A program made the position numbers and the translations under genes. From the NCBI GenBank assembly GCA_965224465.1, contig OZ245049.1:2250001-2282000 (forward strand): a stretch of DNA of 32,000 bases, read 5' to 3'. The stretch is from Flavobacteriaceae bacterium. Its GTDB lineage: Bacteria > Bacteroidota > Bacteroidia > Flavobacteriales > Flavobacteriaceae. Of the stretch, positions 2,395 to 25,092 are shown piece by piece. Under the pieces are notes generated by a model. It was not told the origin of the DNA and made no database searches. It saw only the letters and a list, made by a program, of their open reading frames with translations. Within the stretch, counting starts at the first letter, position 1. Each line of letters starts with the position of its first letter.

Positions 2395-2448
2395 ATGAAA
2401 AAAGAACTACTTATTTTATTCCTCTTATTTCTAAACACAGCCTATTCA
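2395..2448 (+). other. Signal peptide of giant protein (SPase I type)
   Basis: MKKELLILFLLFLNTAYS/QIK: charged N-region, hydrophobic core, small residues at -3/-1. No Cys, so it is not a lipoprotein. Confidence 0.7.
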
Positions 2449-5400
2449 CAAATAAAAATAGGAAATGACCCAGAAATTATAGATGGAAATTCGTTGTTAG
2501 AGCTTAAAAGTAAAGAAAAGGTTTTTGTATTGACAAGAATCAATACTTATCAAATGAATTTGATATCACCTTTGGAAGGCGCTATCATCTATAATACAGA
2601 TTTTCAATGTATCTTTCAATACAACGGGATCTTATGGGAAAACTTATGCGATAGCAGCTCTGACAATCAGACACTTAATTTTGATCCTATAACAAATATA
2701 CTAACTTTAGAAAACGGAGGAACTGTAGACCTCTCTAGCTTTTCTTCTACAGACAGTCAAAACTTAACATTAATTGAAAACACCCTTATTTTAGAAAATG
2801 GAGGAATTGTAGACCTATCTAAATACCTAGACAATACAGACGACCAATATTTTACAGATTTTTCTGTTTCTGGAACTACATTAACCATCTCTTTAGAAAA
2901 TGGAGGAACTAAACATGTAGATCTATCTGCCTTTGAAGAATCTACTGAAATAGCCACCAATCTAGAAAAAATCACTACAAACGCAAGTGATATTACTGCC
3001 ATAGAAACTGAGCAAACAACACAGAACACAAACATTGCGGCAAATGCAAGTGACATTGACGCCCTAGAAACTGAGCAAACTACTCAAAACACAAATATTG
3101 CAGCAAATACAAGTGACATTGATGCCCTAGAAACTGAGCAAACTACTCAGAATACAAATATTGCAGCAAACACTTCTAACATCTCAACAAATACCACAAA
3201 CATCACCACAAATACGAGTGACATTTCTGCTATAGAAATTGAGCAAACAACACAGAACACAAACATTGCGGCAAATGCAAGTGACATTGACGCCTTAGAA
3301 ACCGAGCAAACTACCCAAAACACAAATATTGCGGCAAATACCACAAACATTGCTACAAATGCAAGTGACATTGACGTCATAGAAACTGAGCAAACTACTC
3401 AGAACACAAATATTGCAGCAAATACCACAAACATCACCACAAACTCAAGTGACATTGATGCCTTAGAAACTGAGCAAACTACTCAGAACACAAATATTGC
3501 AGCAAACACCACAAACATCACCACAAATGCAAGCGATATTGATGCTATAGAAACCGTACAAACTACTCAAAACACAAACATCACTACAAACGCAAGTGAC
3601 ATTGATGCCCTAGAAACTGAACAAACTACTCAGAACACAAATATTGCAGCAAATACTTCCAATATCTCAACAAATACCACAAACATCACCACAAATGCGA
3701 GTGACATTGACGCCATAGAAACTGAGCAAACTACTCAAAACACAAATATTGCAGCAAATACATCTAACATCTCAACAAATGCAAGTGATATTACTGCCAT
3801 AGAAACTGAGCAAACTACTCAGAATACAAATATTGCAGCAAACACTTCCGACATCTCAACAAATACAAGTGACATTTCTGATATAGAAATTGAGCAAACT
3901 ACTCAAAATACAAACATCGCAGCGAATACAAGTGATATTTCTGATATAAAAACCGAGCAAACTACTCAGAATACAAATATTGCAGCAAACGCTTCCGACA
4001 TCTCAACAAATACCACAAACATCACCACAAATGCGAGTGACATTTCTGCTATAGAAACTGAGCAAACAACGCAGAACACAAACATAGCAGCAAATACAAG
4101 TGACATTGATGCCCTAGAAACTGAGCAAACTACTCAAAATACTAATATTGCAGCAAACACTTCCAATATCTCAACAAATACCACAAACATCACCTCAAAT
4201 GCGAGTGACATTGACGCCATAGAAACTAAGCAAACTACTCAAAATACTAATATTGCTGCAAATACAACAAACATCACTACAAATGCGAGTGACATTTCTG
4301 ATATAGAAATTGAGCAAACAACGCAGAATACAAACATCGCAGCAAATACAACAAACATCACTACAAACACAAGTGACATTTCTGATATAGAAACCGAGCA
4401 AACAACGCAGAACACAAACATTGCTGCAAATACAACAAACATCACTACAAACTCAAGTGACATTGATGCCCTAGAAACTGAGCAAACTACTCAGAACACG
4501 AACATTGCGGCAAACATTTCCGACATCTCAACAAATACCACAAACATCACCTCAAATGCGAGTGACATTGACGCCATAGAAACTGAACAAACAACGCAGA
4601 ACACAAACATAGCAGCAAATACAAGTGACATTGATGCCCTAGAAACTGAGCAAACTACTCAAAATACTAATATTGCAGCAAACACTTCCAATATCTCAAC
4701 AAATACCACAAACATCACCTCAAATGCGAGTGACATTGACGCCATAGAAACTGAGCAAACTACTCAAAATACTAATATTGCTGCAAATACAACAAACATC
4801 ACTACAAATGCGAGTGACATTTCTGATATAGAAATTGAGCAAACAACGCAGAATACAAACATCGCAGCAAATACAACAAACATCACTACAAACACAAGTG
4901 ACATTTCTGATATAGAAACCGAGCAAACAACGCAGAACACAAATATTGCAGCAAACACTTCTAACATCTCAACAAACGCAAGTGATATTACTGCTATAGA
5001 AACTGAGCAAACTACTCAGAACACAAATATTGCAGCAAACGCTTCCGACATCTCAACAAATACAACAAACATCACCACAAATGCGAGTGACATTGACGCC
5101 ATAGAAACTGAACAAACTACTCAAAACACAAACATCGCGGCAAACACAAATGATATTTCTGATATAAAAACCGAGCAAACTACTCAGAATACAAATATTG
5201 CAGCAAACACTTCTAACATCTCAACAAATACCACAAACATCACCTCAAATGCGAGTGACATTGACGCCATAGAAACTGAGCAAACTACTCAGAACACGAA
5301 CATTGCGGCAAATACAACAAACATCACTACAAATGCGAGTGACATTTCTGATATAGAAATTGAGCAAACAACGCAGAATACAAACATCGCAGCAAATACA

Positions 5401-8400
5401 ACAAACATCACTACAAACACAAGTGACATTTCTGATATAGAAACCGAGCAAACAACGCAGAACACAAACATTACTGCAAATACAACAAACATCACTACAA
5501 ACTCAAGTGACATTGATGCCCTAGAAACTGAGCAAACTACTCAGAACACGAACATTGCGGCAAACACTTCCGACATCTCAACAAATACCACAAACATCAC
5601 CTCAAATGCGAGTGACATTGACGCCATAGAAACTGAACAAACAACGCAGAACACAAACATAGCAGCAAATACAAGTGACATTGATGCCCTAGAAACTGAG
5701 CAAACTACTCAAAATACTAATATTGCAGCAAACACTTCCAATATCTCAACAAATACCACAAACATCACCTCAAATGCGAGTGACATTGACGCCATAGAAA
5801 CTGAGCAAACTACTCAAAATACTAATATTGCTGCAAATACAACAAACATCACTACAAATGCGAGTGACATTTCTGATATAGAAATTGAGCAAACAACGCA
5901 GAATACAAACATCGCAGCAAATACAACAAACATCACTACAAACACAAGTGACATTTCTGATATAGAAACCGAGCAAACAACGCAGAACACAAACATTGCT
6001 GCAAATACAACAAACATCACTACAAACTCAAGTGACATTGATGCCCTAGAAACTGAGCAAACTACTCAGAACACGAACATTGCGGCAAACACTTCCGACA
6101 TCTCAACAAATACCACAAACATCACCTCAAATGCGAGTGACATTGACGCCATAGAAACTGAACAAACAACGCAGAACACAAACATAGCAGCAAATACAAG
6201 TGACATTGATGCCCTAGAAACTGAGCAAACTACTCAAAATACTAATATTGCAGCAAACACTTCCAATATCTCAACAAATACCACAAACATCACCTCAAAT
6301 GCGAGTGACATTGACGCCATAGAAACTGAGCAAACTACTCAAAATACTAATATTGCTGCAAATACAACAAACATCACTACAAATGCGAGTGACATTTCTG
6401 ATATAGAAATTGAGCAAACAACGCAGAATACAAACATCGCAGCAAATACAACAAACATCACTACAAACACAAGTGACATTTCTGATATAGAAACCGAGCA
6501 AACAACGCAGAACACAAATATTGCAGCAAACACTTCTAACATCTCAACAAACGCAAGTGATATTACTGCTATAGAAACTGAGCAAACTACTCAGAACACA
6601 AATATTGCAGCAAACGCTTCCGACATCTCAACAAATACAACAAACATCACCACAAATGCGAGTGACATTGACGCCATAGAAACTGAACAAACTACTCAAA
6701 ACACAAACATCGCGGCAAACACAAATGATATTTCTGATATAAAAACCGAGCAAACTACTCAGAATACAAATATTGCAGCAAACACTTCTAACATCTCAAC
6801 AAATACCACAAACATCACCTCAAATGCGAGTGACATTGACGCCATAGAAACTGAGCAAACTACTCAGAACACGAACATTGCGGCAAACACTTCCGACATC
6901 TCAACAAATACCACAAACATCACCACAAATACGAGTGACATTGACGCCATAGAAACTGAGCAAACTACTCAAAACACAAATATTGCAGCAAATACTTCTA
7001 ACATCACCACAAATGCGAGTGACATTGATGACATAGAAACCGAGCAAACTACTCAGAACACGAACATTGCGGCAAACACTTCCGACATCTCAACAAATAC
7101 AACAAACATCACCACAAGTGCGAGTGACATTGACGCCATAGAAACTGAACAAACTACTCAAAACACAAACATCGCAACAAACACTTCCAGTATCTCAACA
7201 AATACCACAAACATCACTACAAACGCAAGTGATATTGATACCCTAGAAACTGAACAAACAACACAGAATACAAATATTGCAACAAACACTTCTAACATCA
7301 CCACAAATACAAGTAACATTGATGCCATAGAAACTGAGCAAACTACTCAAAACACAAACATTGCGGCAAACACTTCTAACATCTCAACAAATACAACAAA
7401 CATCACCACAAATGCGAGTGACATTTCTGCTATAGAAACTGAACAAACAACGCAGAATACAAACATCGCAACAAATGCAAGTGACATTGACACCATAGAA
7501 ACCGAGCAAACAACACAGAACACAAATATTGCGGCAAACACAACAAACATCACCACAAATGCAAGCGATATTGACGCCATAGAAACTGAGCAAACTACTC
7601 AAAACACAAATATTGCAGCAAACACTTCCGACATCTCAACAAATACAACAAACATCACTACAAACTCAAGTGACATTGACGCCATAGAAACTGAGCAAAC
7701 AACACAGAATACAAATATTGCAGCAAACACTTCTAACATCACCACAAATGCGAGTGACATTTCTGCTATAGAAACTGAACAAACTACTCAAAACACTAAT
7801 ATTATAGCAAACACTTCTAACATCTCAACAAATACCACAAACATCACCACAAATGCGAGTGACATTTCTGATATAGAAACCGAGCAAACTACTCAAAACA
7901 CTAATATTACAGCAAACACTTCCAATATCTCAACAAATACCACAAACATCACCTCAAATGCGAGTGACATTGACGCCATAGAAACTGAGCAAACTACTCA
8001 AAATACTAATATTGCTGCAAATACAACAAACATCACTACAAATGCGAGTGACATTTCTGATATAGAAATTGAGCAAACAACGCAGAATACAAACATCGCA
8101 GCAAATACAACAAACATCACTACAAACACAAGTGACATTTCTGATATAGAAACCGAGCAAACAACGCAGAACACAAATATTGCAGCAAACACTTCTAACA
8201 TCTCAACAAACGCAAGTGATATTACTGCTATAGAAACTGAGCAAACTACTCAGAACACAAATATTGCAGCAAACGCTTCCGACATCTCAACAAATACAAC
8301 AAACATCACCACAAATGCGAGTGACATTGATGCCATAGAAACTGAACAAACTACTCAAAACACAAACATCGCGGCAAACACAAATGATATTTCTGATATA

Positions 8401-11400
8401 AAAACCGAGCAAACTACTCAGAATACAAATATTGCAGCAAACACTTCTAACATCTCAACAAATACCACAAACATCACCTCAAATGCGAGTGACATTGACG
8501 CCATAGAAACTGAGCAAACTACTCAGAACACGAACATTGCGGCAAATACAACAAACATCACTACAAATGCGAGTGACATTTCTGATATAGAAATTGAGCA
8601 AACAACGCAGAATACAAACATCGCAGCAAATACAACAAACATCACTACAAACACAAGTGACATTTCTGATATAGAAACCGAGCAAACAACGCAGAACACA
8701 AATATTGCAGCAAACACTTCTAACATCTCAACAAACGCAAGTGATATTACTGCTATAGAAACTGAGCAAACTACTCAGAACACAAATATTGCAGCAAACG
8801 CTTCCGACATCTCAACAAATACAACAAACATCACCACAAATGCGAGTGACATTGACGCCATAGAAACTGAACAAACTACTCAAAACACAAACATCGCGGC
8901 AAACACAAATGATATTTCTGATATAAAAACCGAGCAAACTACTCAGAATACAAATATTGCAGCAAACACTTCTAACATCTCAACAAATACCACAAACATC
9001 ACCTCAAATGCGAGTGACATTGACGCCATAGAAACTGAGCAAACTACTCAGAACACGAACATTGCGGCAAACACAACAAACATCACTACAAACTCAAGTG
9101 ACATTGATGCCTTAGAAACTGAGCAAACAACGCAGAACACGAACATTGCGGCAAACACTTCCAACACCTCAACAAATACCACAAACATCACCACAAATGC
9201 GAGTGACATTTCTGCTATAGAAACTGAACAAACTACTCAGAACACAAACATCGCAACAAATGCAAGTGACATTGACACCATAGAAACTGAGCAAACAACG
9301 CAGAACACAAACATAGCAACAAATACAAGTGATATTACTGCCATAGAAACTGAGCAAACTACTCAAAATACTAATATTGCTGCAAATACAACAAACATCA
9401 CTACAAATGCGAGTGACATTTCTGATATAGAAATTGAGCAAACAACGCAGAATACAAACATCGCAGCAAATACAACAAACATCACTACAAACACAAGTGA
9501 CATTTCTGATATAGAAACCGAGCAAACAACGCAGAACACAAATATTGCAGCAAACACTTCTAACATCTCAACAAACGCAAGTGATATTACTGCTATAGAA
9601 ACTGAGCAAACTACTCAGAACACAAATATTGCAGCAAACGCTTCCGACATCTCAACAAATACAACAAACATCACCACAAATGCGAGTGACATTGACGCCA
9701 TAGAAACTGAACAAACTACTCAAAACACAAACATCGCGGCAAACACAAATGATATTTCTGATATAAAAACCGAGCAAACTACTCAGAATACAAATATTGC
9801 AGCAAACACTTCTAACATCTCAACAAATACCACAAACATCACCTCAAATGCGAGTGACATTGACGCCATAGAAACTGAGCAAACTACTCAGAACACGAAC
9901 ATTGCGGCAAATACAACAAACATCACTACAAATGCGAGTGACATTTCTGATATAGAAATTGAGCAAACAACGCAGAATACAAACATCGCAGCAAATACAA
10001 CAAACATCACTACAAACACAAGTGACATTTCTGATATAGAAACCGAGCAAACAACGCAGAACACAAATATTGCAGCAAACACTTCTAACATCTCAACAAA
10101 CGCAAGTGATATTACTGCTATAGAAACTGAGCAAACTACTCAGAACACAAATATTGCAGCAAACGCTTCCGACATCTCAACAAATACAACAAACATCACC
10201 ACAAATGCGAGTGACATTGACGCCATAGAAACTGAACAAACTACTCAAAACACAAACATCGCGGCAAACACAAATGATATTTCTGATATAAAAACCGAGC
10301 AAACTACGCAGAATACAAATATTGCAGCAAACACTTCTAACATCACCACAAATACAAGCGGTATTACAGCCATAGAAACTGAGCAAACAACGCAGAATAC
10401 AAACATCGCAGCAAACACTTCCAGTATCTCAACAAATACCACAAACATCACCACAAATACGGGTGACATTGACGCCATAGAAACTGAGCAGACTACTCAA
10501 AACACAAACATAGCAACAAATACAACAAACATCACTACAAACTCAAGTGACATTGACGCCATAGAAACTGAACAAACTACTCAAAACACAAATATTGCAG
10601 CAAATACAAGTGATATTTCTGATATAAAAACTGAGCAAACTACTCAGAACACGAACATTGCGGCAAACACTTCCGACATCTCAACAAATACCACAAACAT
10701 CACCACAAATACGAGTGACATTGACGCCATAGAAACCGAGCAAACTACTCAGAATACAAATATTGCAGCAAATACAACAAACATCACTACAAACTCAAGT
10801 GACATTGACGCCATAGAAACTGAACAAACTACTCAAAACACAAACATCGCGGCAAATACAAGTGATATTTCTGATATAAAAACCGAGCAAACTACTCAGA
10901 ATACAAATATTGCAGCAAACACTTCTAACATCTCAACAAATACCACAAACATCACTACAAACGCAAGTGATATTACAAATCTAGAAACTGAGCAAACTAC
11001 TCAAAACACAAATATTGCAGCAAATACTTCTAACATCACCACAAATGCGAGTGACATTGATGACATAGAAACTGAGCAAACAACACAGAATACAAATATT
11101 GCAACAAATACATCTAACATCACTACAAACGCAAGTGATATTACTGCTATAGAAACCGAGCAAACTACTCAGAACACGAACATTGCGGCAAACACTTCCG
11201 ACATCTCAACAAATACCACAAACATCACCACAAATACGAGTGACATTGACGCCATAGAAACTGAGCAAACAACGCAGAACACAAACATTGCTGCAAATAC
11301 AACAAACATCACTACAAACTCAAGTGACATTGATGCCCTACAAACTGAGCAAACTACTCAGAACACGAACATTGCGGCAAACACTTCCGACATCTCAACA

Positions 11401-14400
11401 AATACCACAAACATCACCTCAAATGCGAGTGACATTGACGCCATAGAAACTGAACAAACTACTCAAAACACAAACATCGCGGCAAATACAAGTGATATTT
11501 CTGATATAAAAACCGAGCAAACTACTCAGAATACAAATATTGCAGCAAACACTTCTAACATCTCAACAAATACCACAAACATCACCTCAAATGCGAGTGA
11601 CATTTCTGCTATAGAAACTGAACAAACTACTCAAAACACAAACATCGCGGCAAACACAAATGATATTTCTGATATAAAAACCGAGCAAACTACTCAGAAT
11701 ACAAATATTGCAGCAAACACTTCCAACATCTCAACAAACACCACAAACATCACCACAAATGCGAGTGACATTGACGCCATAGAAACTGAGCAAACTACTC
11801 AAAACACAAACATCGCGGCAAACACAAGTGACATTTCTGATATAGAAACCGAGCAAACAACGCAGAACACAAATATTGCAGCAAACACTTCTAACATCTC
11901 AACAAATACAACAAACATCACTACAAACTCAAGTGACATTGACGCCATAGAAACTGAACAAACTACTCAAAACACAAATATTGCAGCAAATACAAGTGAT
12001 ATTTCTGATATAAAAACTGAGCAAACTACTCAGAACACGAACATTGCGGCAAACACTTCCGACATCTCAACAAATACCACAAACATCACCACAAATACGA
12101 GTGACATTGACGCCATAGAAACCGAGCAAACTACTCAGAATACAAATATTGCAGCAAATACAACAAACATCACTACAAACTCAAGTGACATTGACGCCAT
12201 AGAAACTGAACAAACTACTCAAAACACAAACATCGCGGCAAATACAAGTGATATTTCTGATATAAAAACCGAGCAAACTACTCAGAATACAAATATTGCA
12301 GCAAACACTTCTAACATCTCAACAAATACCACAAACATCACTACAAACGCAAGTGATATTACAAATCTAGAAACTGAGCAAACTACTCAAAACACAAATA
12401 TTGCAGCAAATACTTCTAACATCACCACAAATGCGAGTGACATTGATGACATAGAAACTGAGCAAACAACACAGAATACAAATATTGCAACAAATACATC
12501 TAACATCACTACAAACGCAAGTGATATTACTGCTATAGAAACCGAGCAAACTACTCAGAACACGAACATTGCGGCAAACACTTCCGACATCTCAACAAAT
12601 ACCACAAACATCACCACAAATACGAGTGACATTGACGCCATAGAAACTGAGCAAACAACGCAGAACACAAACATTGCTGCAAATACAACAAACATCACTA
12701 CAAACTCAAGTGACATTGATGCCCTACAAACTGAGCAAACTACTCAGAACACGAACATTGCGGCAAACACTTCCGACATCTCAACAAATACCACAAACAT
12801 CACCTCAAATGCGAGTGACATTGACGCCATAGAAACTGAACAAACTACTCAAAACACAAACATCGCGGCAAATACAAGTGATATTTCTGATATAAAAACC
12901 GAGCAAACTACTCAGAATACAAATATTGCAGCAAACACTTCTAACATCTCAACAAATACCACAAACATCACCTCAAATGCGAGTGACATTTCTGCTATAG
13001 AAACTGAACAAACTACTCAAAACACAAACATCGCGGCAAACACAAATGATATTTCTGATATAAAAACCGAGCAAACTACTCAGAATACAAATATTGCAGC
13101 AAACACTTCCAACATCTCAACAAACACCACAAACATCACCACAAATGCGAGTGACATTGACGCCATAGAAACTGAGCAAACTACTCAAAACACAAACATC
13201 GCGGCAAACACAAGTGACATTTCTGATATAGAAACCGAGCAAACAACGCAGAACACAAATATTGCAGCAAACACTTCTAACATCTCAACAAATACCACAA
13301 ACATCACCACAAATGCGAGTGACATTGACGCCATAGAAACTGAACAAACTACTCAAAACACAAACATCGCGGCAAATACAAGTGATATTTCTGATATAAA
13401 AACCGAGCAAACTACTCAGAATACTAATATTGCGGCAAACACTTCTAACATCTCAACAAATACCACAAACATCACCTCAAATGCGAGTGACATTTCTGCT
13501 ATAGAAACTGAACAAACAACGCAGAACGCAAATATTGCAACAAACACTTCCAACATCTCAACAAATACAAGTGACATTACTGCCTTAGAAACTGAGCAAA
13601 CTACGCAGAATACAAATATTGGAACGAATACAGCAGACATTTCGACAAACACGACAAGCATTACAAATCACATAGCCAATGACTTAGATATCGACCCTAC
13701 TAATGAAATTCAAGACATCAGTATAATCGGTAATAATTTAACGATTTCAAATGGTAGCACAGTAACAATACCTACATCAGATGGATCAGAAACAATTATA
13801 CAGGCAGGAAATGCAATAACTACAATAACTGGTAGTGGTACAACAGCCGATCCATATATTGTAACAGCCACACCTGCAACATTAACCGATAATGGAGACG
13901 GAACATATACCTTTGCAAACGGAATTGACACCGATGTAACATTTGCCTTGGTTGCTAACACTCCTGCTCCTATTGTAGGGAATTCAAATACAAAAACAGG
14001 TTGTGAAGCAACAGAACAAGGAGAAACAAGCACCATTACCTTAACTGGAGAAAATTTTACATCTGACACCGTCATAACCATTCCAGGACAAACAATAGAT
14101 TATGTAACAGTAGTAAGTTCTACAGAAATAATAGTAGGAATAACTGCTGGTGGAGTTTCTGGTGATTTTGACGTAACAGCAACAAATACAAATGGTTCTG
14201 GCACATTAACCAATGGATTCCATATTAGAAATCCTTTAGTTACTAATACTATTTCAACGTTAAGCACAGACAACACAATGAATTACAACGGGTCAACGCT
14301 AGTAAAAACAGGCGGTAATGGTTGGAATGGAAACGCAAACTCAACAGCACCTAACGGCTCTTTAGAAACGGCAAAAAACGGAGGCTATTCATTTACTGTA

Positions 14401-14724
14401 AATCAAAATAACAAATGGATGAGTATGGGAATAGATGCGAACCCTTCCTTAGCCCACTCATGGAATACTATAGATTATGGTTTTAGATTTTCCAGTAGTG
14501 GAACATATAGAATTTATGAAAATAATTCGATGAAATTATCAAGTACACCTTATAATGCCAATGATAATTTTGAAATATTAAAAGATTGTAATGGAAACAT
14601 TACGTACTACAGAAATGGTAGTTTAATTTACACTTCCACTAGTACTGCGACAAACGACTTGTTTATTGACACTTGTTTTTACCACCAAAATGCCTCAGTT
14701 TCTAACATAAAACTAACAAAATAA
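2395..14724 (+). CDS. Giant secreted repeat protein (4,109 aa): putative coiled-coil fibre / adhesin-like surface protein
   Basis: Single uninterrupted 12,330-nt ORF in AT-rich DNA, which chance cannot explain. Sec-type signal peptide. Repeat cores differ only by synonymous codons, which supports real translation. The functional call is inferred from architecture only. Confidence 0.9.
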   Translation: MKKELLILFLLFLNTAYSQIKIGNDPEIIDGNSLLELKSKEKVFVLTRINTYQMNLISPLEGAIIYNTDFQCIFQYNGILWENLCDSSSDNQTLNFDPITNILTLENGGTVDLSSFSSTDSQNLTLIENTLILENGGIVDLSKYLDNTDDQYFTDFSVSGTTLTISLENGGTKHVDLSAFEESTEIATNLEKITTNASDITAIETEQTTQNTNIAANASDIDALETEQTTQNTNIAANTSDIDALETEQTTQNTNIAANTSNISTNTTNITTNTSDISAIEIEQTTQNTNIAANASDIDALETEQTTQNTNIAANTTNIATNASDIDVIETEQTTQNTNIAANTTNITTNSSDIDALETEQTTQNTNIAANTTNITTNASDIDAIETVQTTQNTNITTNASDIDALETEQTTQNTNIAANTSNISTNTTNITTNASDIDAIETEQTTQNTNIAANTSNISTNASDITAIETEQTTQNTNIAANTSDISTNTSDISDIEIEQTTQNTNIAANTSDISDIKTEQTTQNTNIAANASDISTNTTNITTNASDISAIETEQTTQNTNIAANTSDIDALETEQTTQNTNIAANTSNISTNTTNITSNASDIDAIETKQTTQNTNIAANTTNITTNASDISDIEIEQTTQNTNIAANTTNITTNTSDISDIETEQTTQNTNIAANTTNITTNSSDIDALETEQTTQNTNIAANISDISTNTTNITSNASDIDAIETEQTTQNTNIAANTSDIDALETEQTTQNTNIAANTSNISTNTTNITSNASDIDAIETEQTTQNTNIAANTTNITTNASDISDIEIEQTTQNTNIAANTTNITTNTSDISDIETEQTTQNTNIAANTSNISTNASDITAIETEQTTQNTNIAANASDISTNTTNITTNASDIDAIETEQTTQNTNIAANTNDISDIKTEQTTQNTNIAANTSNISTNTTNITSNASDIDAIETEQTTQNTNIAANTTNITTNASDISDIEIEQTTQNTNIAANTTNITTNTSDISDIETEQTTQNTNITANTTNITTNSSDIDALETEQTTQNTNIAANTSDISTNTTNITSNASDIDAIETEQTTQNTNIAANTSDIDALETEQTTQNTNIAANTSNISTNTTNITSNASDIDAIETEQTTQNTNIAANTTNITTNASDISDIEIEQTTQNTNIAANTTNITTNTSDISDIETEQTTQNTNIAANTTNITTNSSDIDALETEQTTQNTNIAANTSDISTNTTNITSNASDIDAIETEQTTQNTNIAANTSDIDALETEQTTQNTNIAANTSNISTNTTNITSNASDIDAIETEQTTQNTNIAANTTNITTNASDISDIEIEQTTQNTNIAANTTNITTNTSDISDIETEQTTQNTNIAANTSNISTNASDITAIETEQTTQNTNIAANASDISTNTTNITTNASDIDAIETEQTTQNTNIAANTNDISDIKTEQTTQNTNIAANTSNISTNTTNITSNASDIDAIETEQTTQNTNIAANTSDISTNTTNITTNTSDIDAIETEQTTQNTNIAANTSNITTNASDIDDIETEQTTQNTNIAANTSDISTNTTNITTSASDIDAIETEQTTQNTNIATNTSSISTNTTNITTNASDIDTLETEQTTQNTNIATNTSNITTNTSNIDAIETEQTTQNTNIAANTSNISTNTTNITTNASDISAIETEQTTQNTNIATNASDIDTIETEQTTQNTNIAANTTNITTNASDIDAIETEQTTQNTNIAANTSDISTNTTNITTNSSDIDAIETEQTTQNTNIAANTSNITTNASDISAIETEQTTQNTNIIANTSNISTNTTNITTNASDISDIETEQTTQNTNITANTSNISTNTTNITSNASDIDAIETEQTTQNTNIAANTTNITTNASDISDIEIEQTTQNTNIAANTTNITTNTSDISDIETEQTTQNTNIAANTSNISTNASDITAIETEQTTQNTNIAANASDISTNTTNITTNASDIDAIETEQTTQNTNIAANTNDISDIKTEQTTQNTNIAANTSNISTNTTNITSNASDIDAIETEQTTQNTNIAANTTNITTNASDISDIEIEQTTQNTNIAANTTNITTNTSDISDIETEQTTQNTNIAANTSNISTNASDITAIETEQTTQNTNIAANASDISTNTTNITTNASDIDAIETEQTTQNTNIAANTNDISDIKTEQTTQNTNIAANTSNISTNTTNITSNASDIDAIETEQTTQNTNIAANTTNITTNSSDIDALETEQTTQNTNIAANTSNTSTNTTNITTNASDISAIETEQTTQNTNIATNASDIDTIETEQTTQNTNIATNTSDITAIETEQTTQNTNIAANTTNITTNASDISDIEIEQTTQNTNIAANTTNITTNTSDISDIETEQTTQNTNIAANTSNISTNASDITAIETEQTTQNTNIAANASDISTNTTNITTNASDIDAIETEQTTQNTNIAANTNDISDIKTEQTTQNTNIAANTSNISTNTTNITSNASDIDAIETEQTTQNTNIAANTTNITTNASDISDIEIEQTTQNTNIAANTTNITTNTSDISDIETEQTTQNTNIAANTSNISTNASDITAIETEQTTQNTNIAANASDISTNTTNITTNASDIDAIETEQTTQNTNIAANTNDISDIKTEQTTQNTNIAANTSNITTNTSGITAIETEQTTQNTNIAANTSSISTNTTNITTNTGDIDAIETEQTTQNTNIATNTTNITTNSSDIDAIETEQTTQNTNIAANTSDISDIKTEQTTQNTNIAANTSDISTNTTNITTNTSDIDAIETEQTTQNTNIAANTTNITTNSSDIDAIETEQTTQNTNIAANTSDISDIKTEQTTQNTNIAANTSNISTNTTNITTNASDITNLETEQTTQNTNIAANTSNITTNASDIDDIETEQTTQNTNIATNTSNITTNASDITAIETEQTTQNTNIAANTSDISTNTTNITTNTSDIDAIETEQTTQNTNIAANTTNITTNSSDIDALQTEQTTQNTNIAANTSDISTNTTNITSNASDIDAIETEQTTQNTNIAANTSDISDIKTEQTTQNTNIAANTSNISTNTTNITSNASDISAIETEQTTQNTNIAANTNDISDIKTEQTTQNTNIAANTSNISTNTTNITTNASDIDAIETEQTTQNTNIAANTSDISDIETEQTTQNTNIAANTSNISTNTTNITTNSSDIDAIETEQTTQNTNIAANTSDISDIKTEQTTQNTNIAANTSDISTNTTNITTNTSDIDAIETEQTTQNTNIAANTTNITTNSSDIDAIETEQTTQNTNIAANTSDISDIKTEQTTQNTNIAANTSNISTNTTNITTNASDITNLETEQTTQNTNIAANTSNITTNASDIDDIETEQTTQNTNIATNTSNITTNASDITAIETEQTTQNTNIAANTSDISTNTTNITTNTSDIDAIETEQTTQNTNIAANTTNITTNSSDIDALQTEQTTQNTNIAANTSDISTNTTNITSNASDIDAIETEQTTQNTNIAANTSDISDIKTEQTTQNTNIAANTSNISTNTTNITSNASDISAIETEQTTQNTNIAANTNDISDIKTEQTTQNTNIAANTSNISTNTTNITTNASDIDAIETEQTTQNTNIAANTSDISDIETEQTTQNTNIAANTSNISTNTTNITTNASDIDAIETEQTTQNTNIAANTSDISDIKTEQTTQNTNIAANTSNISTNTTNITSNASDISAIETEQTTQNANIATNTSNISTNTSDITALETEQTTQNTNIGTNTADISTNTTSITNHIANDLDIDPTNEIQDISIIGNNLTISNGSTVTIPTSDGSETIIQAGNAITTITGSGTTADPYIVTATPATLTDNGDGTYTFANGIDTDVTFALVANTPAPIVGNSNTKTGCEATEQGETSTITLTGENFTSDTVITIPGQTIDYVTVVSSTEIIVGITAGGVSGDFDVTATNTNGSGTLTNGFHIRNPLVTNTISTLSTDNTMNYNGSTLVKTGGNGWNGNANSTAPNGSLETAKNGGYSFTVNQNNKWMSMGIDANPSLAHSWNTIDYGFRFSSSGTYRIYENNSMKLSSTPYNANDNFEILKDCNGNITYYRNGSLIYTSTSTATNDLFIDTCFYHQNASVSNIKLTK
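2449..2934 (+). other. N-terminal head: conserved Bacteroidota-type N-domain plus three LENGG modules
   Basis: aa 19-85 (NSLLELKSKEKVFVLTRINTYQMNLISPLEGAIIYNTD...YNGILWENL) resembles, from memory, the N-terminal module seen in many Bacteroidota surface or tail-fiber-like proteins. Three roughly 27-aa modules follow: TLNFDPITNILTLENGGTVDLSSF, NLTLIENTLILENGGIVDLSKYLD and FSVSGTTLTISLENGGTKHVDLSAF. Confidence 0.5.
4113..6850 (+). repeat. 525-bp (175-aa, 6-unit) higher-order repeat zone with a 1575-bp super-period
   Basis: Sequence at 4141 recurs at 4666. Identical antisense-ORF translations recur at 4195/4720/5770/6295 (a variant at 5245), at 4239/5814, and at 4764/6339. The same block types reappear at 7954-8726 and 9319-10091. 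Confidence 0.9.
10515..13295 (+). repeat. Perfect 1,386-bp (462-aa) tandem duplication inside the array
   Basis: Line-by-line comparison of 10518-11400 with 11904-12786 found no mismatch. The 11821-11909 stretch also matches 13207-13295. The copies diverge at about 11910/13296. Identical antisense ORFs at 10981 and 12367 have the same 1,386-bp offset. Confidence 0.9.
13693..13773 (+). other. Fourth LENGG-like module immediately after the repeat array
   Basis: DPTNEIQDISIIGNNLTISNGSTVTIP resembles the three N-terminal modules (xNQTLxF...NxLTLENGGTVDL). It is followed by TLTDNGDGTYTFANGIDTDVTF. Confidence 0.45.
13963..14235 (+). other. IPT/TIG-like Ig-fold domain
   Basis: PAPIVG...GETSTITLTGENFTSDTVITIPGQTIDYVTVVSSTEIIVGITAGGVSGDFDVTATNTNGSGTLTNGFHI follows the P-x-I...G-x-x-(I/L)-T-(I/L)-x-G-x-N-F...V-x-(I/V)-G...S-x-x-x-I-x-V pattern typical of IPT/TIG domains. 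Judged by eye only. Confidence 0.5.
14236..14721 (+). other. C-terminal ~160-aa beta-sandwich / lectin-like (LamG/ConA-like) domain
   Basis: GGNGWNGNANS...GGYSFTVNQNNKWMSMGID...IDYGFRFSSSGTYRIYENNSMKL...DNFEILKDCNGNITYYRNGSLIYTS shows alternating beta-strand-like pattern with aromatic and Gly/Asn turns. No YPNP / KLIK-type T9SS CTD pattern was seen. Confidence 0.4.
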
Positions 14725-15130: not shown

Positions 15131-15175
15131 AAACAAAAAAAAACTGTCTCAAAAAAATGAAACAGTTTTTTATTA
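15131..15175. terminator. Bidirectional intrinsic terminator between giant gene region and ctaD
   Basis: Stem aaactgt-tc (15141-15150) / ga-acagttt (15159-15168) with one mismatch. It is flanked by an A-run upstream and a T-run downstream, so it reads as hairpin plus U-tract on both strands. It lies 15-50 nt past the ctaD stop. Confidence 0.55.
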
Positions 15176-15189
15176 AAAATATTTTAAAC

Positions 15190-16941
15190 TTACGAAGGTA
15201 TTTCTCCTTCTTTTAGAGGAACATTTTGCGGAACAAAATCTTCATCCCATCCTGGCTTACTATAATCATAAGCCCAACGGTGAACTTCTGGAATTGCTCC
15301 AGGCCAATTTCCATGCACATGTTCCACAGGAGTCGTCCATTCCAACGTATTGGAATTCCATGGATTCTGAGTTGCTTTTTTACCCCTATAAATACTCATA
15401 AAGAAGTTCGCTAAAAATATAATTTGAGCAGCCCCTCCAAGAATGGCAAATAAGGTAATTACAATATTAATATCTTGCACATCGTCAAACAACGGAAATG
15501 CAGTATTGTTATAATATCTACGTGGTAATCCAGCCAATCCAACAAAATGCATTGGAAAGAAAACACCATAGGCGGCGACTGCTGTAATCCAAAAATGCCA
15601 GTATCCTAAAGTTTTATTCATCATTCTCCCATACATTTTAGGGAACCAATGATACACACCCGCAAACATTCCGTAAATAGCAGACACACCCATCACCAAG
15701 TGAAAATGCGCCACTACAAAGTAAGTGTCATGGACATTTATATCCAAGGCTGAATCTCCTAAAACCAATCCTGTCAATCCACCTGTAATAAAAGTAGAAA
15801 CAAGTCCTATAGAAAATAACATGGCTGGATTCATTTGCAGATTCCCTTTCCATAAAGTCGTTAAATAGTTAAATGATTTTACAGCTGATGGAATGGCAAT
15901 TAACAAGGTTGTAAAAGTAAATACAGACCCCAAGAAAGGATTCATTCCAGACACAAACATATGATGACCCCAAACAATAGTAGACAAGAATGCTATGGCT
16001 ATAATCGATGCAATCATGGCACGGTACCCAAAAATAGGTTTTCTAGAATTTGTAGAAATTACTTCAGAAGTAATACCTAATGCTGGCAATAATACAATAT
16101 ACACCTCTGGATGTCCTAGAAACCAAAATAGATGTTCGAACAGCACAGGTGAACCTCCTTGATAATGCAGCACTTCACCGTTTATAAAAATATCAGACAA
16201 AAAGAATGATGTTCCGAAACTACGATCAAAAATTAATAATAAGGCAGCTGACAACAATACTGGAAATGAAACTACTCCAATAATAGCAGTTACAAAAAAG
16301 GTCCAGATAGTTAAAGGCAAACGTGTCATTTTCATACCCACGGTACGTAAATTAAGCACGGTTACAATATAATTTAATGATCCCAACAAAGAGGATGCAA
16401 TAAAAATAGCCATAGAAATCAACCACAATGTCATTCCCATCCCAGAGCCTGGCATTGCTTGTGGCAAGGCACTTAGAGGAGGATAAATAGTCCATCCTGC
16501 AGCTGCAGGTCCTGCTTCCACAAATAAGGAAATCAGCATTAATAAACTAGATAAGAAAAACAACCAGTAAGAGACCATATTCAAAAATCCAGAAGCCATA
16601 TCACGAGCTCCAATTTGCAATGGAATTAATAAATTACTAAACGTTCCACTCAGTCCAGCTGTAAGTACAAAAAACACCATAATGGTTCCGTGAATAGTCA
16701 CTAAGGCTAAGTACATATCTGGAGTCATTACTCCATCAACTTGATGAGGGCCTAAAAAGGCTTCGATTAGGGTAAATGAATGGTCTGGCCAAGCTATTTG
16801 TAACCGAAACATCATGGACATTAAAACGCCAATGACTCCCATAAAAATACCTGTCACCAAGTATTGTTTTGAAATCATTTTATGATCGGTACTAAAAATA
16901 TATTTTGTTACAAAAGTTTCTTTGTGATGATGCGCTGACAT
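15190..16941 (-). CDS. ctaD: Cytochrome c oxidase subunit I (heme-copper oxidase, aa3-type)
   Basis: 583 aa, polytopic. Carries signature motifs GHPEVYIVLLPALG, WGHHMF (CuB His pair) and VVAHFHLVM (heme ligands). Confidence 0.95.
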   Translation of the reverse strand: MSAHHHKETFVTKYIFSTDHKMISKQYLVTGIFMGVIGVLMSMMFRLQIAWPDHSFTLIEAFLGPHQVDGVMTPDMYLALVTIHGTIMVFFVLTAGLSGTFSNLLIPLQIGARDMASGFLNMVSYWLFFLSSLLMLISLFVEAGPAAAGWTIYPPLSALPQAMPGSGMGMTLWLISMAIFIASSLLGSLNYIVTVLNLRTVGMKMTRLPLTIWTFFVTAIIGVVSFPVLLSAALLLIFDRSFGTSFFLSDIFINGEVLHYQGGSPVLFEHLFWFLGHPEVYIVLLPALGITSEVISTNSRKPIFGYRAMIASIIAIAFLSTIVWGHHMFVSGMNPFLGSVFTFTTLLIAIPSAVKSFNYLTTLWKGNLQMNPAMLFSIGLVSTFITGGLTGLVLGDSALDINVHDTYFVVAHFHLVMGVSAIYGMFAGVYHWFPKMYGRMMNKTLGYWHFWITAVAAYGVFFPMHFVGLAGLPRRYYNNTAFPLFDDVQDINIVITLFAILGGAAQIIFLANFFMSIYRGKKATQNPWNSNTLEWTTPVEHVHGNWPGAIPEVHRWAYDYSKPGWDEDFVPQNVPLKEGEIPS

Positions 16942-17015
16942 AGCTCTAATTTTGTTAGTTGTTAGTTACTAGTATTTGATTGCTAGTTATTGATGCTAGA
17001 TATTGGTACTACTTT

Positions 17016-18023
17016 TTAGTTCAGTACTTGAGCAATTGTTTTCTGAGATTTTAACCAAGTATTAAATGCTTCTTCTTCTTGTACTACAATTTTCATTTGC
17101 ATATTGTAATGAGAGGAACCACAAATTTTGTTACATAATAATAAGTAATCAAATTCGTAGGCATCTTCACCTTTCGCTTTTCTTATTTTATTAATCCCAG
17201 CAACCTTAGCAATGGTCGCAGTATTTACTCTCATTTCTTCAGTAGTAAACTTGGGTGTAAAAGAAAATTGAGTAATCATCCCAGGGACACAGTTCATTTG
17301 CGCTCTAAAATGCGGCATATAAGCTGAGTGTAATACATCTTGGGAACGAAATTTAAAAATCACTTGACGTCCTTTAGGTAAATACAATACACGCGTTGGA
17401 ATATCATCTTGGGCATTTTTATCGGTCATATCAACACCCATGGTATTCTTTCCTTTAATGTTTCTAACATTCCCCCTACCTAGAGTTTGATCAGCACCAG
17501 CATAGCGAGCTTCCCATTGAAATTGTTGGGCATACACTTCAACAATTAAAGGGTCTTTAGCATCTGAAACATCCATAAAATTATTCCATGCCCATAATCC
17601 ATAAATTACAAGGACAGACAATACAATAGTTGGAACAGTGGTCCAAATTAACTCTAGTTTATGGCTATCCGCATAAAAAAGTGCTTTTGTTCCTTTCTTA
17701 CCTCTGTATTTAAAGGCAAAATAAAACAATAAAAATTGAGTAATTGCTTGAACAAATAGGATCAGCAACATGGTAATTACATATAAGTTATCGTAGTGCT
17801 CTCCTTCTATCGAAGCCGATTCGGGAAGTAATACAACATTGTAAGCCACTAAACAGTAGATCATCAATACATAAAAAAAGACACCAAACGCAGCGAATAA
17901 GTATCCCTGTGTATTATTATCTTTCTCGGTAGCGATGACACCTTTTAGATTAAAAATATTTGTAATTTGCCATAAAGCAATAGCAGTCACTATCGCAATA
18001 AAAATGTAAATTAATGCAGTCAT
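17016..18023 (-). CDS. coxB: Cytochrome c oxidase subunit II (no fused cytochrome c domain)
   Basis: 335 aa with two or three N-terminal TM helices. CuA ligand pattern DVLHSAYMPHF ... CNKICGSSHYNM (H...CxxxCxxxHxxM). No CxxCH motif is present. Confidence 0.9.
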   Translation of the reverse strand: MTALIYIFIAIVTAIALWQITNIFNLKGVIATEKDNNTQGYLFAAFGVFFYVLMIYCLVAYNVVLLPESASIEGEHYDNLYVITMLLILFVQAITQFLLFYFAFKYRGKKGTKALFYADSHKLELIWTTVPTIVLSVLVIYGLWAWNNFMDVSDAKDPLIVEVYAQQFQWEARYAGADQTLGRGNVRNIKGKNTMGVDMTDKNAQDDIPTRVLYLPKGRQVIFKFRSQDVLHSAYMPHFRAQMNCVPGMITQFSFTPKFTTEEMRVNTATIAKVAGINKIRKAKGEDAYEFDYLLLCNKICGSSHYNMQMKIVVQEEEAFNTWLKSQKTIAQVLN

Positions 18024-18056
18024 TATAGTTTGTTAGTTAGTAATAGTGAGCCAAAT

Positions 18057-18090
18057 ATAAAAAAAATCCTGAACATAACCAGTTCAGGAT
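18057..18090 (-). terminator. Intrinsic terminator between actF and coxB
   Basis: 9-bp stem atcctgaac (18066-18074) / gttcaggat (18082-18090) with a 7-nt loop. On the minus strand it is followed by a T-run (complement of the A-run at 18057-18065). It sits 28 nt past the actF stop. Confidence 0.55.
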
Positions 18091-18117
18091 TTTATTATAC
18101 CTTTTTTTTTATATTTT

Positions 18118-19458
18118 TTAATAGTGAAAACCTTCACTTTCTTTAAGATACGGATTGTTTTTTACTACAAGTGGAGCTTTTGATAAAGCATTAAATACCA
18201 CATAAATAAATATCCCTGCAATCAACAATACAGCACCTATTTCTGGAATTCCAATAAACCAATGTGTTCCTACAGTTGCAGGCATCACCATTACGAAGAT
18301 GTCTATATAATGCCCTATAAGGATTACAATACCTGTAACCATCACAAACCAATTTAGGCGTTTAAAATCGCTATTCATCAATACGAGTAATGGGAATACA
18401 AAATTTAATCCGACCATTCCTAAAAACGGCAAACGATAATCTTCAAATCTTGTAATAAAATAAGTTACCTCCTCTGGAATATTTGCATACCATATCAACA
18501 TGAATTGTGAAAACCATAAATACGTCCAGAAAACACTGAATCCAAACATGTATTTAGCTAAATCATGTAAATGACTCTTGTTTACTACTTCTAAATACCC
18601 TTGTCCTTTTAGGTACATGGTAACCAAAGCAATTACTGTAACAGCAGATACGATAGCACTCGAAAATATATACCAACCGAATAAGGTAGAGAACCAGTGT
18701 GGATCTAAGGACATAATCCAGTCCCAAGACATCATAGATTCCGTGATTAAGAAAAACACTAAAAACCCTGCTGATCGCTTGAATAATTTACGATAATTCC
18801 CAGTATCAACAATATCTTGAGCCTTTGTTAATTTACGAGAATGCCATTGGAAAAAAGACCAACCTCCGATATAAATAACAGCTCTTATTAAAAAGAAAGG
18901 TACATTTAAGTATCCTTCTTTATTTTGCAATAATTGATCTCCAGCAACTACATCAGCATCCATCCATATAAAAAGATGATTCATATGCATTCCTGATAAT
19001 ACCAAAAACACAAATAACAAAATACCTCCTATTGGTAAATAAGCAGCGATGGCTTCCATTACTCGAAACAATACAATAGACCATCCTGCCTGAGTTGCAT
19101 TCTGAATTGCATAAAAAGCAAGTGCTGTTAATGAAATTATTAAGAAAAAGAATATCGCCACATACAATGCAGACCAAGGTCTATTTTGCAATTGGTGTAA
19201 AACATGGAGCGCATGTGCATCGTGTGCCTCCTCCGTACTATGAGCATCTGTTGTATTATGACTTTCCGTTGTAGTTGTCTCATGTGATGCTTCGGCATGT
19301 GTATCAACAGCATGCGTATCATGACTTTCGTGAGCCATCATTTCTTTGACTTCCTCTACCGTACTAGGCGTAGATAAAAATCCGTAAGTAACGCCTAGAA
19401 GCCCAACAATCATTAAGGCAAACGAAAATGTTTTTAATTTACTTGAAAATGTATACAT
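18118..19458 (-). CDS. actF: Alternative Complex III subunit ActF (polytopic NrfD-like membrane subunit; quinol:cytochrome c oxidoreductase)
   Basis: 446 aa and strongly hydrophobic. It is the last gene of the actABCDEF order, directly upstream of the cox genes. It carries a His/Thr/Glu-rich insert after the first TM helix. Confidence 0.7.
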   Translation of the reverse strand: MYTFSSKLKTFSFALMIVGLLGVTYGFLSTPSTVEEVKEMMAHESHDTHAVDTHAEASHETTTTESHNTTDAHSTEEAHDAHALHVLHQLQNRPWSALYVAIFFFLIISLTALAFYAIQNATQAGWSIVLFRVMEAIAAYLPIGGILLFVFLVLSGMHMNHLFIWMDADVVAGDQLLQNKEGYLNVPFFLIRAVIYIGGWSFFQWHSRKLTKAQDIVDTGNYRKLFKRSAGFLVFFLITESMMSWDWIMSLDPHWFSTLFGWYIFSSAIVSAVTVIALVTMYLKGQGYLEVVNKSHLHDLAKYMFGFSVFWTYLWFSQFMLIWYANIPEEVTYFITRFEDYRLPFLGMVGLNFVFPLLVLMNSDFKRLNWFVMVTGIVILIGHYIDIFVMVMPATVGTHWFIGIPEIGAVLLIAGIFIYVVFNALSKAPLVVKNNPYLKESEGFHY

Positions 19459-19485
19459 ATCTTTAAATTCTATCTTCCTTAAGTA

Positions 19486-20043
19486 TTATTTAATTAAATC
19501 ACTTCTGAGTTGTTCCACATACATGACTATTTGCCAACGCTCTTTTTCTGTTAGTTGAGAAGCGTGAGATCCCATCATATTTCTACCATACATAATCACA
19601 TGATAAATAGATCCCTCAGTAATATCACGAGAACTATAATTAGGAATCCCTAAGAATTTTTCGCGTTTTACAAGTACACCATCTCCTGCTCCCTTTTTTC
19701 CGTGACAAGAAATACAGTAAATGTTGTACATAGCTTTTCCATTCTTCATATTGGCATCATTCTTTTCAAAGGGAGATTTTAACTCCACTTTAGCCAATTC
19801 ATATCCTTGATTTGTATTTTCATAGGCGTAAGGAAACGCATGTCCACGAGCAATGGTGCCTTCTACAGGTTTTTGTACTGTCATCCCATTTTTTAAAATA
19901 GGATTTACACTATACGTTTCATACCCAATAGACTCATACATATCTGGCATGTATTGATAATTCCTTTTTGATTTATCTGTCCAACATGATGTGATCATCA
20001 CAGACATCATCAATAGGGCTATATATTTAATCGAGTTTTTCAT
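19486..20043 (-). CDS. actE: Alternative Complex III subunit ActE (monoheme cytochrome c, probable lipoprotein)
   Basis: 185 aa. Signal peptide ends in the lipobox-like MITSC. There is a single CISCH heme-binding motif. The position between actD and actF fits. Confidence 0.8.
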   Translation of the reverse strand: MKNSIKYIALLMMSVMITSCWTDKSKRNYQYMPDMYESIGYETYSVNPILKNGMTVQKPVEGTIARGHAFPYAYENTNQGYELAKVELKSPFEKNDANMKNGKAMYNIYCISCHGKKGAGDGVLVKREKFLGIPNYSSRDITEGSIYHVIMYGRNMMGSHASQLTEKERWQIVMYVEQLRSDLIK

Positions 20044-20048
20044 TTCTC

Positions 20049-20573
20049 TTAAAGCTTTTCGGTTACTTTTAATTCGATGGCGCCTGTTTTTGTAAGCAAT
20101 GCAGACATTTCATCTTCGTTTCCATCCAATACAATTTCCATTACAAACATATCATCCGTAGTACGTGGATCAGGATTTTCTGCTTCTTTAAACGGCCATA
20201 ATCTACTTCTCATATAAAAAGTAATTACCATTAAGTGAGCAGCAAAAAATATAGTCAATTCAAACATAATTGGCACAAATGCTGGCATATTCTGAATATA
20301 AGACATATTAGGTTTCCCACCAATGTCTTGCGGCCAATCCTCAATCATCATATAATTCATCATCCATGTTGCAAAGCATAAGCCAATACAACCATAAATA
20401 AATGCAGCGATGGCAAGTCTTGTTTCTTTCAAGCCCATAGCTTTGTCTAAACCATGAACAGGAAACGGCGTGTACACTTCTTCGATCTGATGATTGGCTG
20501 CACGAACTTCTTTTACAGCATCCAATAGGATATCATCATCATTATACATTGCTTGTATTACTTTTCTACTCAT
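20049..20573 (-). CDS. actD: Alternative Complex III subunit ActD (DUF3341-like membrane protein)
   Basis: 174 aa with two central hydrophobic helices. The start overlaps the actC stop by 8 nt (20566-20573). The position in the cluster fits. Confidence 0.75.
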   Translation of the reverse strand: MSRKVIQAMYNDDDILLDAVKEVRAANHQIEEVYTPFPVHGLDKAMGLKETRLAIAAFIYGCIGLCFATWMMNYMMIEDWPQDIGGKPNMSYIQNMPAFVPIMFELTIFFAAHLMVITFYMRSRLWPFKEAENPDPRTTDDMFVMEIVLDGNEDEMSALLTKTGAIELKVTEKL

Positions 20574-21954: not shown

Positions 21955-21987
21955 AATTTTTATTTAATTACTCTATCTGTTTATAAT

Positions 21988-25062: not shown

Positions 25063-25092
25063 TTTATAATTTGTTATTTCTTTCGTTAGTTA

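Follow-up and report, generated by a model that had tools for sequence, protein, structure and literature searches.

The window analysed here is a 32,000-nt stretch of a Flavobacteriaceae genome (assembly GCA_965224465.1, contig OZ245049.1, positions 2,250,001–2,282,000 of the forward strand), numbered from its first letter. Within it we identified a giant repeat-protein gene, an open reading frame (ORF) of 12.3 kb on the plus strand (2395–14724, stop codon included), which is intact and free of frameshifts. The ORF call and its translation bore out the length of 4,109 aa given in an earlier reading of the bare sequence (hereafter the original prediction), and all the repeats described below fall within this single ORF; every feature of the gene is accordingly on the plus strand. 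The encoded protein is composed of a head, a very long heptad stalk, a connector and a C-terminal module, and the stalk-coding array carries a 1,386-bp segment in two identical tandem copies. Comparison of the whole protein, the head, the stalk and the C-terminus with Pfam, NCBIfam and PHROGs returned no significant family, PHROGs giving only a weak match to the repeat.

Organisation of the stalk

The stalk (2950–13680, aa 186–3762) is composed of 511 consecutive heptads with no register break. These are arranged in 123 units of 21, 28 or 35 aa, each comprising one [QTTQNTN] heptad, one to three [IxxN(T/A)xx] heptads and a closing [Ixx(I/L)ETE] heptad, and every inter-unit spacing is 21, 28 or 35 aa. 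Across the 511 heptads, position a is isoleucine in 387 and glutamine in 123, and position d is asparagine in 263, glutamine in 124, isoleucine in 105 and leucine in 19. The 263 heptads with asparagine at d carry threonine (176), alanine (74) or serine (13) at position e. The stalk thus shows the polar-d pattern of trimeric autotransporters, in which asparagine at d is typically followed by threonine at e. This combination is the commonest polar motif in the stalks of those proteins, and the most extreme natural N-at-d stalk cited comprises 40 heptads (PMC13580157).

Based on the residues at its core positions, the stalk would form a parallel trimeric coiled coil with a half-polar core. In a single-sequence AlphaFold2 model the last 78 stalk residues adopted a single continuous helix (pLDDT 75–86), and at 0.1485 nm per residue the 3,577 aa of the stalk correspond to a predicted rod of ~0.53 µm. 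A sequence search of the PDB with the stalk gave only non-significant coiled-coil matches (M protein, UspA1 and gp26; E 0.1–0.35).

The QTTQNTN heptad is identical at the protein level in 122 of its 123 copies, yet it is encoded by 21 DNA versions, with a diversity of 0.39–0.50 at third codon positions and of about 0 at first and second positions. This contrast points to purifying selection that maintains the amino-acid pattern, including the fully polar Q-Q core layer that QTTQNTN contributes to every unit and that recurs every three to five heptads. The constancy of the protein motif despite the diversity of its DNA also indicates that the array is more than a set of young copies.

An exact 1,386-bp tandem duplication

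The maximal exact run at an offset of 1,386 nt spans 1,396 nt (10514–11909 = 11900–13295), that is, two full copies plus 10 nt. The original prediction had reported identity between 10515–11909 and 11901–13295, and our direct comparison found no mismatch over these 1,395 nt. Copy 1 (10514–11899) encodes 66 heptads, 462 aa or 16 units; copy 2 (11900–13285) matches it exactly, and the duplication is both in frame and in heptad phase.

The junction between the two copies lies in unit 103 (11854–11958), which a three-way alignment and the table of units identified as a hybrid. Its left part equals the left part of unit 119 (13240–13285) and its right part equals the right part of unit 87 (10514–10572). 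The exchange point is located inside a 10-nt patch, CAACAAATAC (11900–11909), the sole stretch common to all three sequences.

Older layers surround this duplication on both sides. Copy 2 is directly followed by a diverged, partial third copy (13286–13600), of which the first 10 nt are exact and the remainder shows 74–98 % identity to the start of the unit; the 330 nt past the exact patch contain 26 synonymous and 22 non-synonymous differences. Upstream of copy 1, the sequence is 81–100 % identical to the segment at an offset of 1,386 nt. With diverged layers both downstream and upstream, the perfect duplication represents the newest layer over older ones.

Chance is excluded as the source of the exact repeat. 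Compared with itself, the array has a mean identity of 0.43–0.59 when the offset (up to 126 nt) is in phase and of 0.30 when it is not; were each site to match with a frequency of 0.8, an uninterrupted match of 1,396 nt would still have a probability of only ~0.8^1396, or ~1e-135. The two 1,386-bp segments probably reflect a real tandem duplication that took place, in frame and very recently, within the stalk-coding array. The recent expansion by homologous exchange put forward in the original prediction is supported by the exact hybrid junction unit, by its being in frame and by its position over older, diverged layers.

Nested repeat layers

Between 2 and 15 kb there are 24 pairs of exact repeats that reach 200 nt or more. 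The 1,396-nt pair heads this list, followed by pairs of 795 nt (4518–5312 = 6093–6887), 728 nt (4741 = 9340) and 611 nt (8332 = 9697). Tandem Repeats Finder resolved the region 2.97–13.65 kb into nested periods of 21, 63, 84, 105, 168, 189, 252, 336, 357 and 420 nt. Among exact repeats of at least 60 nt, all 268 of 268 offsets were divisible by 21, which means that heptad phase, and with it the continuous coiled coil, was kept in every case. When the array was divided into 487 in-phase windows of 525 nt, 132 (27 %) had an exact twin, a further 104 (21 %) had a twin at least 99 % identical and 63 had one at least 95 % identical. At the 5' end of the array the best twins were only 73–83 % identical.

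A higher-order repeat of 525 bp (175 aa, six units) forms a first cluster at 4126–6855, which includes a pair of segments at an offset of 1,575 nt that are 99.8 % identical. Its second and third clusters (7885–10299) comprise units 57–69 and 74–84, with the diverged units 70–73 between them. Two details of the original prediction were revised by these comparisons. The segments 4141–4960 and 5716–6535, described there as differing by a single nucleotide, differ by two (4228 A/G and 4517 T/C), both non-synonymous. The 525-bp blocks starting at 7954, 8479, 9319 and 9844 do recur as described, but they are not the same block: the pairs differ by 6–23 nt, with pairwise identities of 95.6–98.9 %.

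Differences between copies are clustered in tight patches, such as five synonymous changes at 8001–8016, and this patchiness between sister blocks would indicate mosaic exchange or conversion between variant units. The same observation bears on a competing reading of the 1,386-bp repeat, in which two older, diverged copies were recently homogenised by gene conversion with no recent change in length. Such conversion tracts elsewhere in the array, together with the diverged partial third copy, which indicates that a block of this type was already present more than once, are in keeping with that reading. A conversion tract would, however, have to span exactly one period of 1,386 nt and have both its ends in the same 10-nt patch, and the hybrid unit is explained more simply by a single unequal exchange. 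We regard homogenisation of older copies as quite improbable.

Proposed mechanism of the expansion

We propose that the recent duplication arose by unequal exchange within the array. The 21-nt heptad blocks are all alike, so misaligned copies could exchange whenever they are paired in register, with replication forks and sister chromosomes as possible settings. A single exchange of this kind would have joined ISTNTTN of the present unit 119 to IATNTTN|ITTN of unit 87 within the 10 nt of identity. The gain would have been 16 units (66 heptads, 462 aa), or ~69 nm of rod, and the hybrid unit 103 would be its scar. Repeated exchange combined with patchy gene conversion could have built up the nesting, from 21 nt to 63, 84 and 105 nt, then to 168 or 525 nt and finally to 1,386 nt. 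The same process of exchange and conversion would hold many copies at 99–100 % identity.

Intragenic repeat expansion by homologous exchange is an ordinary kind of event and the usual route by which repeat proteins change length. Genes for length-variable repeat surface proteins are marked by direct repeats that are long, nearly identical and in frame, and the window gene contains such repeats. The badA gene of Bartonella henselae is a known case: its stalk-coding region is highly repetitive, ranges from 18 to 34 neck/stalk domains across strains through recombination and was wrongly sized until long-read sequencing could be applied (PMC8859334). In the window gene, too, the repeat phenomenon appears ordinary, and it is the length of the fibre that is unusual. 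The original prediction described the repeats as substrates for RecA-dependent unequal recombination and for replication slippage. A dependence on RecA is not established: the 10-nt crossover patch fits RecA-independent template switching equally well.

A more specialised origin would be programmed phase or antigenic variation, driven by a site-specific recombinase, a diversity-generating retroelement or a silent-cassette donor. The sole support for it is analogy with variable surface proteins, along with an IS30-family element located 13 kb away. No recombinase, reverse transcriptase, invertible segment or silent cassette adjoins the gene in the window; the 15-mers of the array occur nowhere else in the window, being confined to the gene, and homology alone explains the variation. 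Programmed variation is therefore highly improbable. Candidate systems based on a diversity-generating retroelement, an invertase or cassettes were each rejected, as no component of them was seen in the window.

Reliability of the assembled array

Some considerations weigh against a recent duplication in a trimeric surface fibre. Pending reads, a second assembly or a sister strain, the copy number and the exactness of the copies are provisional, and copies can come out identical as a product of graph-based hybrid assembly or of polishing with short reads. Exchange by RecA is efficient only with homology that is usually longer than 10 nt, so the enzymology of the proposed event is also open to doubt. 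The trimeric state of the stalk is deduced from its core positions and its relatives. Similarly, we place the fibre at the cell surface by inference, and the domain scans described below revealed nothing in the protein that is recognisable as an export or anchor domain.

The original prediction had cautioned that the array might be an assembly hazard. An artefact of assembly or polishing would mean either that the true number of units differs (one, three or more) or that near-identical copies were given one consensus. For the family as a whole the hazard is real: of 37 related loci, 23 have an ORF that breaks off at the end of a contig, most protein relatives are labelled 'partial', some on contigs of 352–716 bp, and stalk fragments of relatives lie on contigs of 543–716 bp. 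In badA, two four-domain repeats were missed by Sanger sequencing and revealed by long reads (PMC8859334). The giant protein is itself without a record in a collection of 15 billion proteins, though its neighbours on either side are present there; a different start, a split call or a skipped call may account for the missing record.

At the present locus the hazard is weaker. Database records place the neighbours of the giant gene, upstream and downstream alike, on one NCBI/ENA contig of 5,241,564 bp, so the array was assembled within chromosome-scale sequence, which makes gross mis-assembly less likely. The exact repeats of 1,396, 795, 728 and 611 nt cannot be crossed by short reads alone, and their presence in a contig of this size makes the use of long reads almost certain; one read of ~3.2 kb across 10.3–13.5 kb would be enough to establish how many copies there are. 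Pairs of blocks elsewhere in the array were kept distinct at one or two differences per kilobase, showing that the consensus could discriminate, and the 12.3-kb ORF is intact. Moreover, the junction is homologous and in frame, and older duplications surround it in a graded series, which a single assembler artefact would not produce. On balance we consider an artefact unlikely, and the interpretation given in the original prediction partly supported. In practice the duplication mainly serves as a caution that the copy number needs spanning reads.

Relatives and variation in stalk length

The head and its adjoining LENGG repeats have counterparts in 23 proteins and at 37 genomic loci, nearly all of Flavobacteriaceae origin, with identities of 39–60 %; in a genome scan of species representatives with the head, the best match was 56 % identical. 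These proteins share a signature in which a signal peptide is followed by (V/I)KIG.NP...LE(L)(E/K)S..K.(F/L)VLTR(I/V/L).T.QM..I.PL.GA.(I/V)YNTD..C.(F/H).(Y/F).G..W..LC, and the window protein carries it as well. They also share an architecture, likewise found in the window protein, in which a modular, presumably trimeric repeat stalk (coiled-coil, collagen-like or beta-repeat) connects the head to a C-terminal domain that varies. By these features the giant protein appears to belong to an unnamed, uncharacterised Flavobacteriaceae family defined by its N-terminal head (P0002, P0005, P0140 and L001–L006). Among 90 loci retrieved, none had cytochrome c oxidase, alternative complex III or FAD oxidoreductase genes beside a homologue.

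The closest relatives of the stalk were obtained with a profile-free search of 1.84 billion representatives. Two of them form a pair from Maribacter, each encoded on a chromosome-scale contig. P0140 (M. dokdonensis WP_074669809.1, on a 4.61-Mb contig) has 1,823 aa with 33 coiled-coil units and 8 beta modules, and P0141 (on a 4.48-Mb contig) has 1,365 aa with 18 coiled-coil units and 6 beta modules. The termini of the two proteins are 97.6 % and 98.8 % identical, and their lengths differ by 458 aa of stalk. This comparison provides direct evidence for polymorphism in stalk length among close relatives within the family. For the variation between strains foreseen in the original prediction, support comes from this homologous pair only. 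Other relatives contain in-frame exact internal repeats of up to 371 nt. The longest representative among the matches listed has 2,794 aa, which makes the window protein the extreme of its kind there.

Both Maribacter proteins share with the window protein the head motif QVKIGxNP...LTR..T.QM..ITPL.GA.VYNTD.QC...NG..W..LC and the stalk motif DIDALE(T/A)EQTTQN(T/N)xIA(T/A)N, although stalk identity is only ~45 %. They differ in the layout of the stalk, in which segments of one to seven three-heptad units alternate with beta modules of ~80 aa, whereas the window stalk is uninterrupted and about five times longer. Their C-terminal domain (...DSEFMFTVLDL) also differs from that of the window protein.

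In three further relatives (P0002, L001 and L003) the same head, 54–60 % identical to that of the window protein and followed by the same LENGG-VDLS-TDDQ repeats, is carried on a collagen-like Gly-X-Y stalk. These proteins would form a triple helix rather than a coiled coil and are much shorter (435 aa in L003). A fourth, P0142, has a collagen segment as well as the same coiled-coil modules. Judging from these architectures, the two trimer-forming types of stalk appear interchangeable within the head family. Collagen helices are obligate trimers, and the occurrence of the same head on collagen stalks further suggests a trimer for the coiled-coil stalk.

P0024 (391 aa) has the head joined directly to the same C-terminal domain as the window protein, with no stalk, from which we conclude that the stalk behaves as an insertable spacer. 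The C-terminal Ig-like and SPRY-like module is also present in short proteins: among P0024, P0027 and P0029 (343–391 aa), one has the head and no stalk and two have a different N-terminus of phage-like appearance.

The ends of the protein

The N-terminus is predicted to be a Sec signal peptide, MKKELLILFLLFLNTAYS followed by Q (2395–2448); this assignment was read off the translation, and the peptide has no lipobox cysteine. The head region that follows (2449–2949, aa 19–185) has homologues in Flavobacteriaceae, as described above. It is composed of the head proper, ~70 aa with the motif IKIGNDP...LTRINT.QMN...YNTD.QC.FQYNG..WENLC, and three beta-type repeats of the form LENGG-VDLS-(DN)TDDQ.

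After the stalk, a connector, DLDIDPTNEIQDISIIGNNLTISNGSTVTIPTSDGSET...GSGTTADPYIV (13681–14001), was modelled with low confidence. Its NEIQ motif is common to many fibre-like proteins; a metagenome scan with the C-terminus returned matches to this short motif only and no close relative. The C-terminal module (14002–14721) consists of an Ig-like beta-sandwich followed by a SPRY/ConA-like jelly roll in an AlphaFold2 model (pLDDT 80–95). This model rests on a four-sequence alignment (A2), the single-sequence model being too low in confidence. A Foldseek comparison of the 240-aa model with the PDB placed SPRY domains at the top (E 2e-6, target-normalised TM-score up to 0.68), and the homologue P0024 has a weak Pfam match to SPRY. 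Based on this model, the Ig-like and SPRY-like C-terminus is presumed to be a ligand-binding tip.

With matches accepted up to E = 1, Pfam scans of the whole protein and of its last 385 aa contained no YadA-like anchor, a 12-stranded beta-barrel (PF03895), and Hep_Hag, HIM and the YadA head or neck were not detected in the Pfam scans. Likewise, the last 385 aa, scanned at the same cut-off against NCBIfam and Pfam, showed none of the C-terminal sorting domains of type IX cargo such as SprB or RemA (TIGR04183 of type A, TIGR04131 of type B or Por_Secre_tail).

Comparison with known fibres

As a giant secreted fibre with a head, stalk and tail, the window protein resembles the trimeric autotransporter BadA of B. 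henselae (3,973 aa in strain Marseille). Stalks of the BadA type and the window stalk are also alike in their heptads with asparagine at d and threonine at e (PMC13580157). Unlike trimeric autotransporters, however, the window protein has no YadA-type beta-barrel, Hep_Hag, HIM or neck and ends in the Ig-like and SPRY-like module instead. BadA is proteobacterial, whereas the host of the window protein belongs to the Bacteroidota and its stalk runs through 511 heptads uninterrupted. By its motifs, therefore, the protein would have a stalk like that of a trimeric adhesin and yet would not be a trimeric autotransporter, as it has neither the YadA anchor nor the head or neck motifs.

The NxSxI(S/T/A)xN heptads of phage tail-fibre and tail-needle coiled coils such as P22 gp26 are another point of likeness, and the stalk weakly matches gp26, UspA1 and metagenomic proteins carrying PF24243 (Phage_tail_C). 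Unlike a phage fibre gene, the window gene is located between housekeeping genes, and its PDB matches were non-significant; no phage genes were found near it.

The longest coiled coil known according to a 2016 review is that of giantin, with 3,056 aa and ~0.5 µm (PMC5082667). With 3,577 aa, the predicted rod of the window stalk would be comparable or slightly longer. Giantin is eukaryotic, cytosolic and low in repeats, whereas the window rod is bacterial, predicted to be secreted, probably trimeric and built of near-identical repeats.

Taken together, these comparisons raise the possibility, which we put forward tentatively, that the stalk is the longest continuous coiled coil described. It would be a half-polar secreted trimer of adjustable length with a SPRY-like tip, exported without a type V anchor or a recognised type IX domain. 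The protein represents an unannotated family, with no Pfam or NCBIfam model, in which the polar-core heptads of proteobacterial adhesins occur in a Bacteroidota protein without their anchor, and the polar-core pattern runs for ~3,600 residues with no register break. If the proposal is correct, the Q-Q and I-N core layers could hold strings of ions or water in seawater. Ion-coordinating coiled coils with asparagine at d (Hartmann et al. 2009) are parallel trimers whose asparagine triads bind anions in the core; the window stalk is a candidate for this class on its heptad motif and predicted helix. Unequal exchange would add or remove blocks of 7 to 462 aa (up to 69 nm), populations would carry several discrete fibre lengths, and stalk length would be heritable yet rapidly adjustable. 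Such a fibre would provide a natural test of the length limit of half-polar coiled coils and a clean system in which to measure recombination-driven change in length. It would also raise the question of how marine flavobacteria export and anchor fibres of this size.

Genomic setting

The chromosomal surroundings of the giant gene are ordinary. G+C content is 30–39 %, and Rfam and tRNA scans gave no matches. The upstream neighbour of the giant gene encodes a FAD-dependent oxidoreductase. Also upstream of the giant gene lies a 1.1-kb AT-rich region (1275–2394, G+C ~0.30) with no ORF longer than 57 aa; no terminator-like site, Rfam family or tRNA was found in it, and it may represent a long leader, a regulatory region or a decayed gene. 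The 90 % clusters of the flanking proteins include Flavobacteriaceae of the genera Lutibacter, Tenacibaculum and Polaribacter.

Downstream, on the minus strand, is an operon for alternative complex III and cytochrome c oxidase, followed further on by the IS30-family element and infB. A complete set of alternative complex III genes, directly followed by those for cytochrome c oxidase subunits II and I, spans 15190–26673. The set encodes a multihaem cytochrome c, a molybdopterin/FeS subunit, an NrfD-like subunit, ActD and a mono-haem cytochrome c, as well as a 446-aa protein without a Pfam match. A strong terminator-like hairpin is located by these genes at 15171–15138. A frameshift in the IF-2 gene was considered as a sign of poor consensus and rejected, as this ORF merely runs off the end of the window.

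The IS30-family insertion sequence (28061–29177) is apparently intact. Its transposase ORF (28150–29154) starts with TTG and has the Pfam domains HTH_38 and rve, and the element is bounded by imperfect terminal inverted repeats of 25 nt (28061–28085 and 29153–29177).

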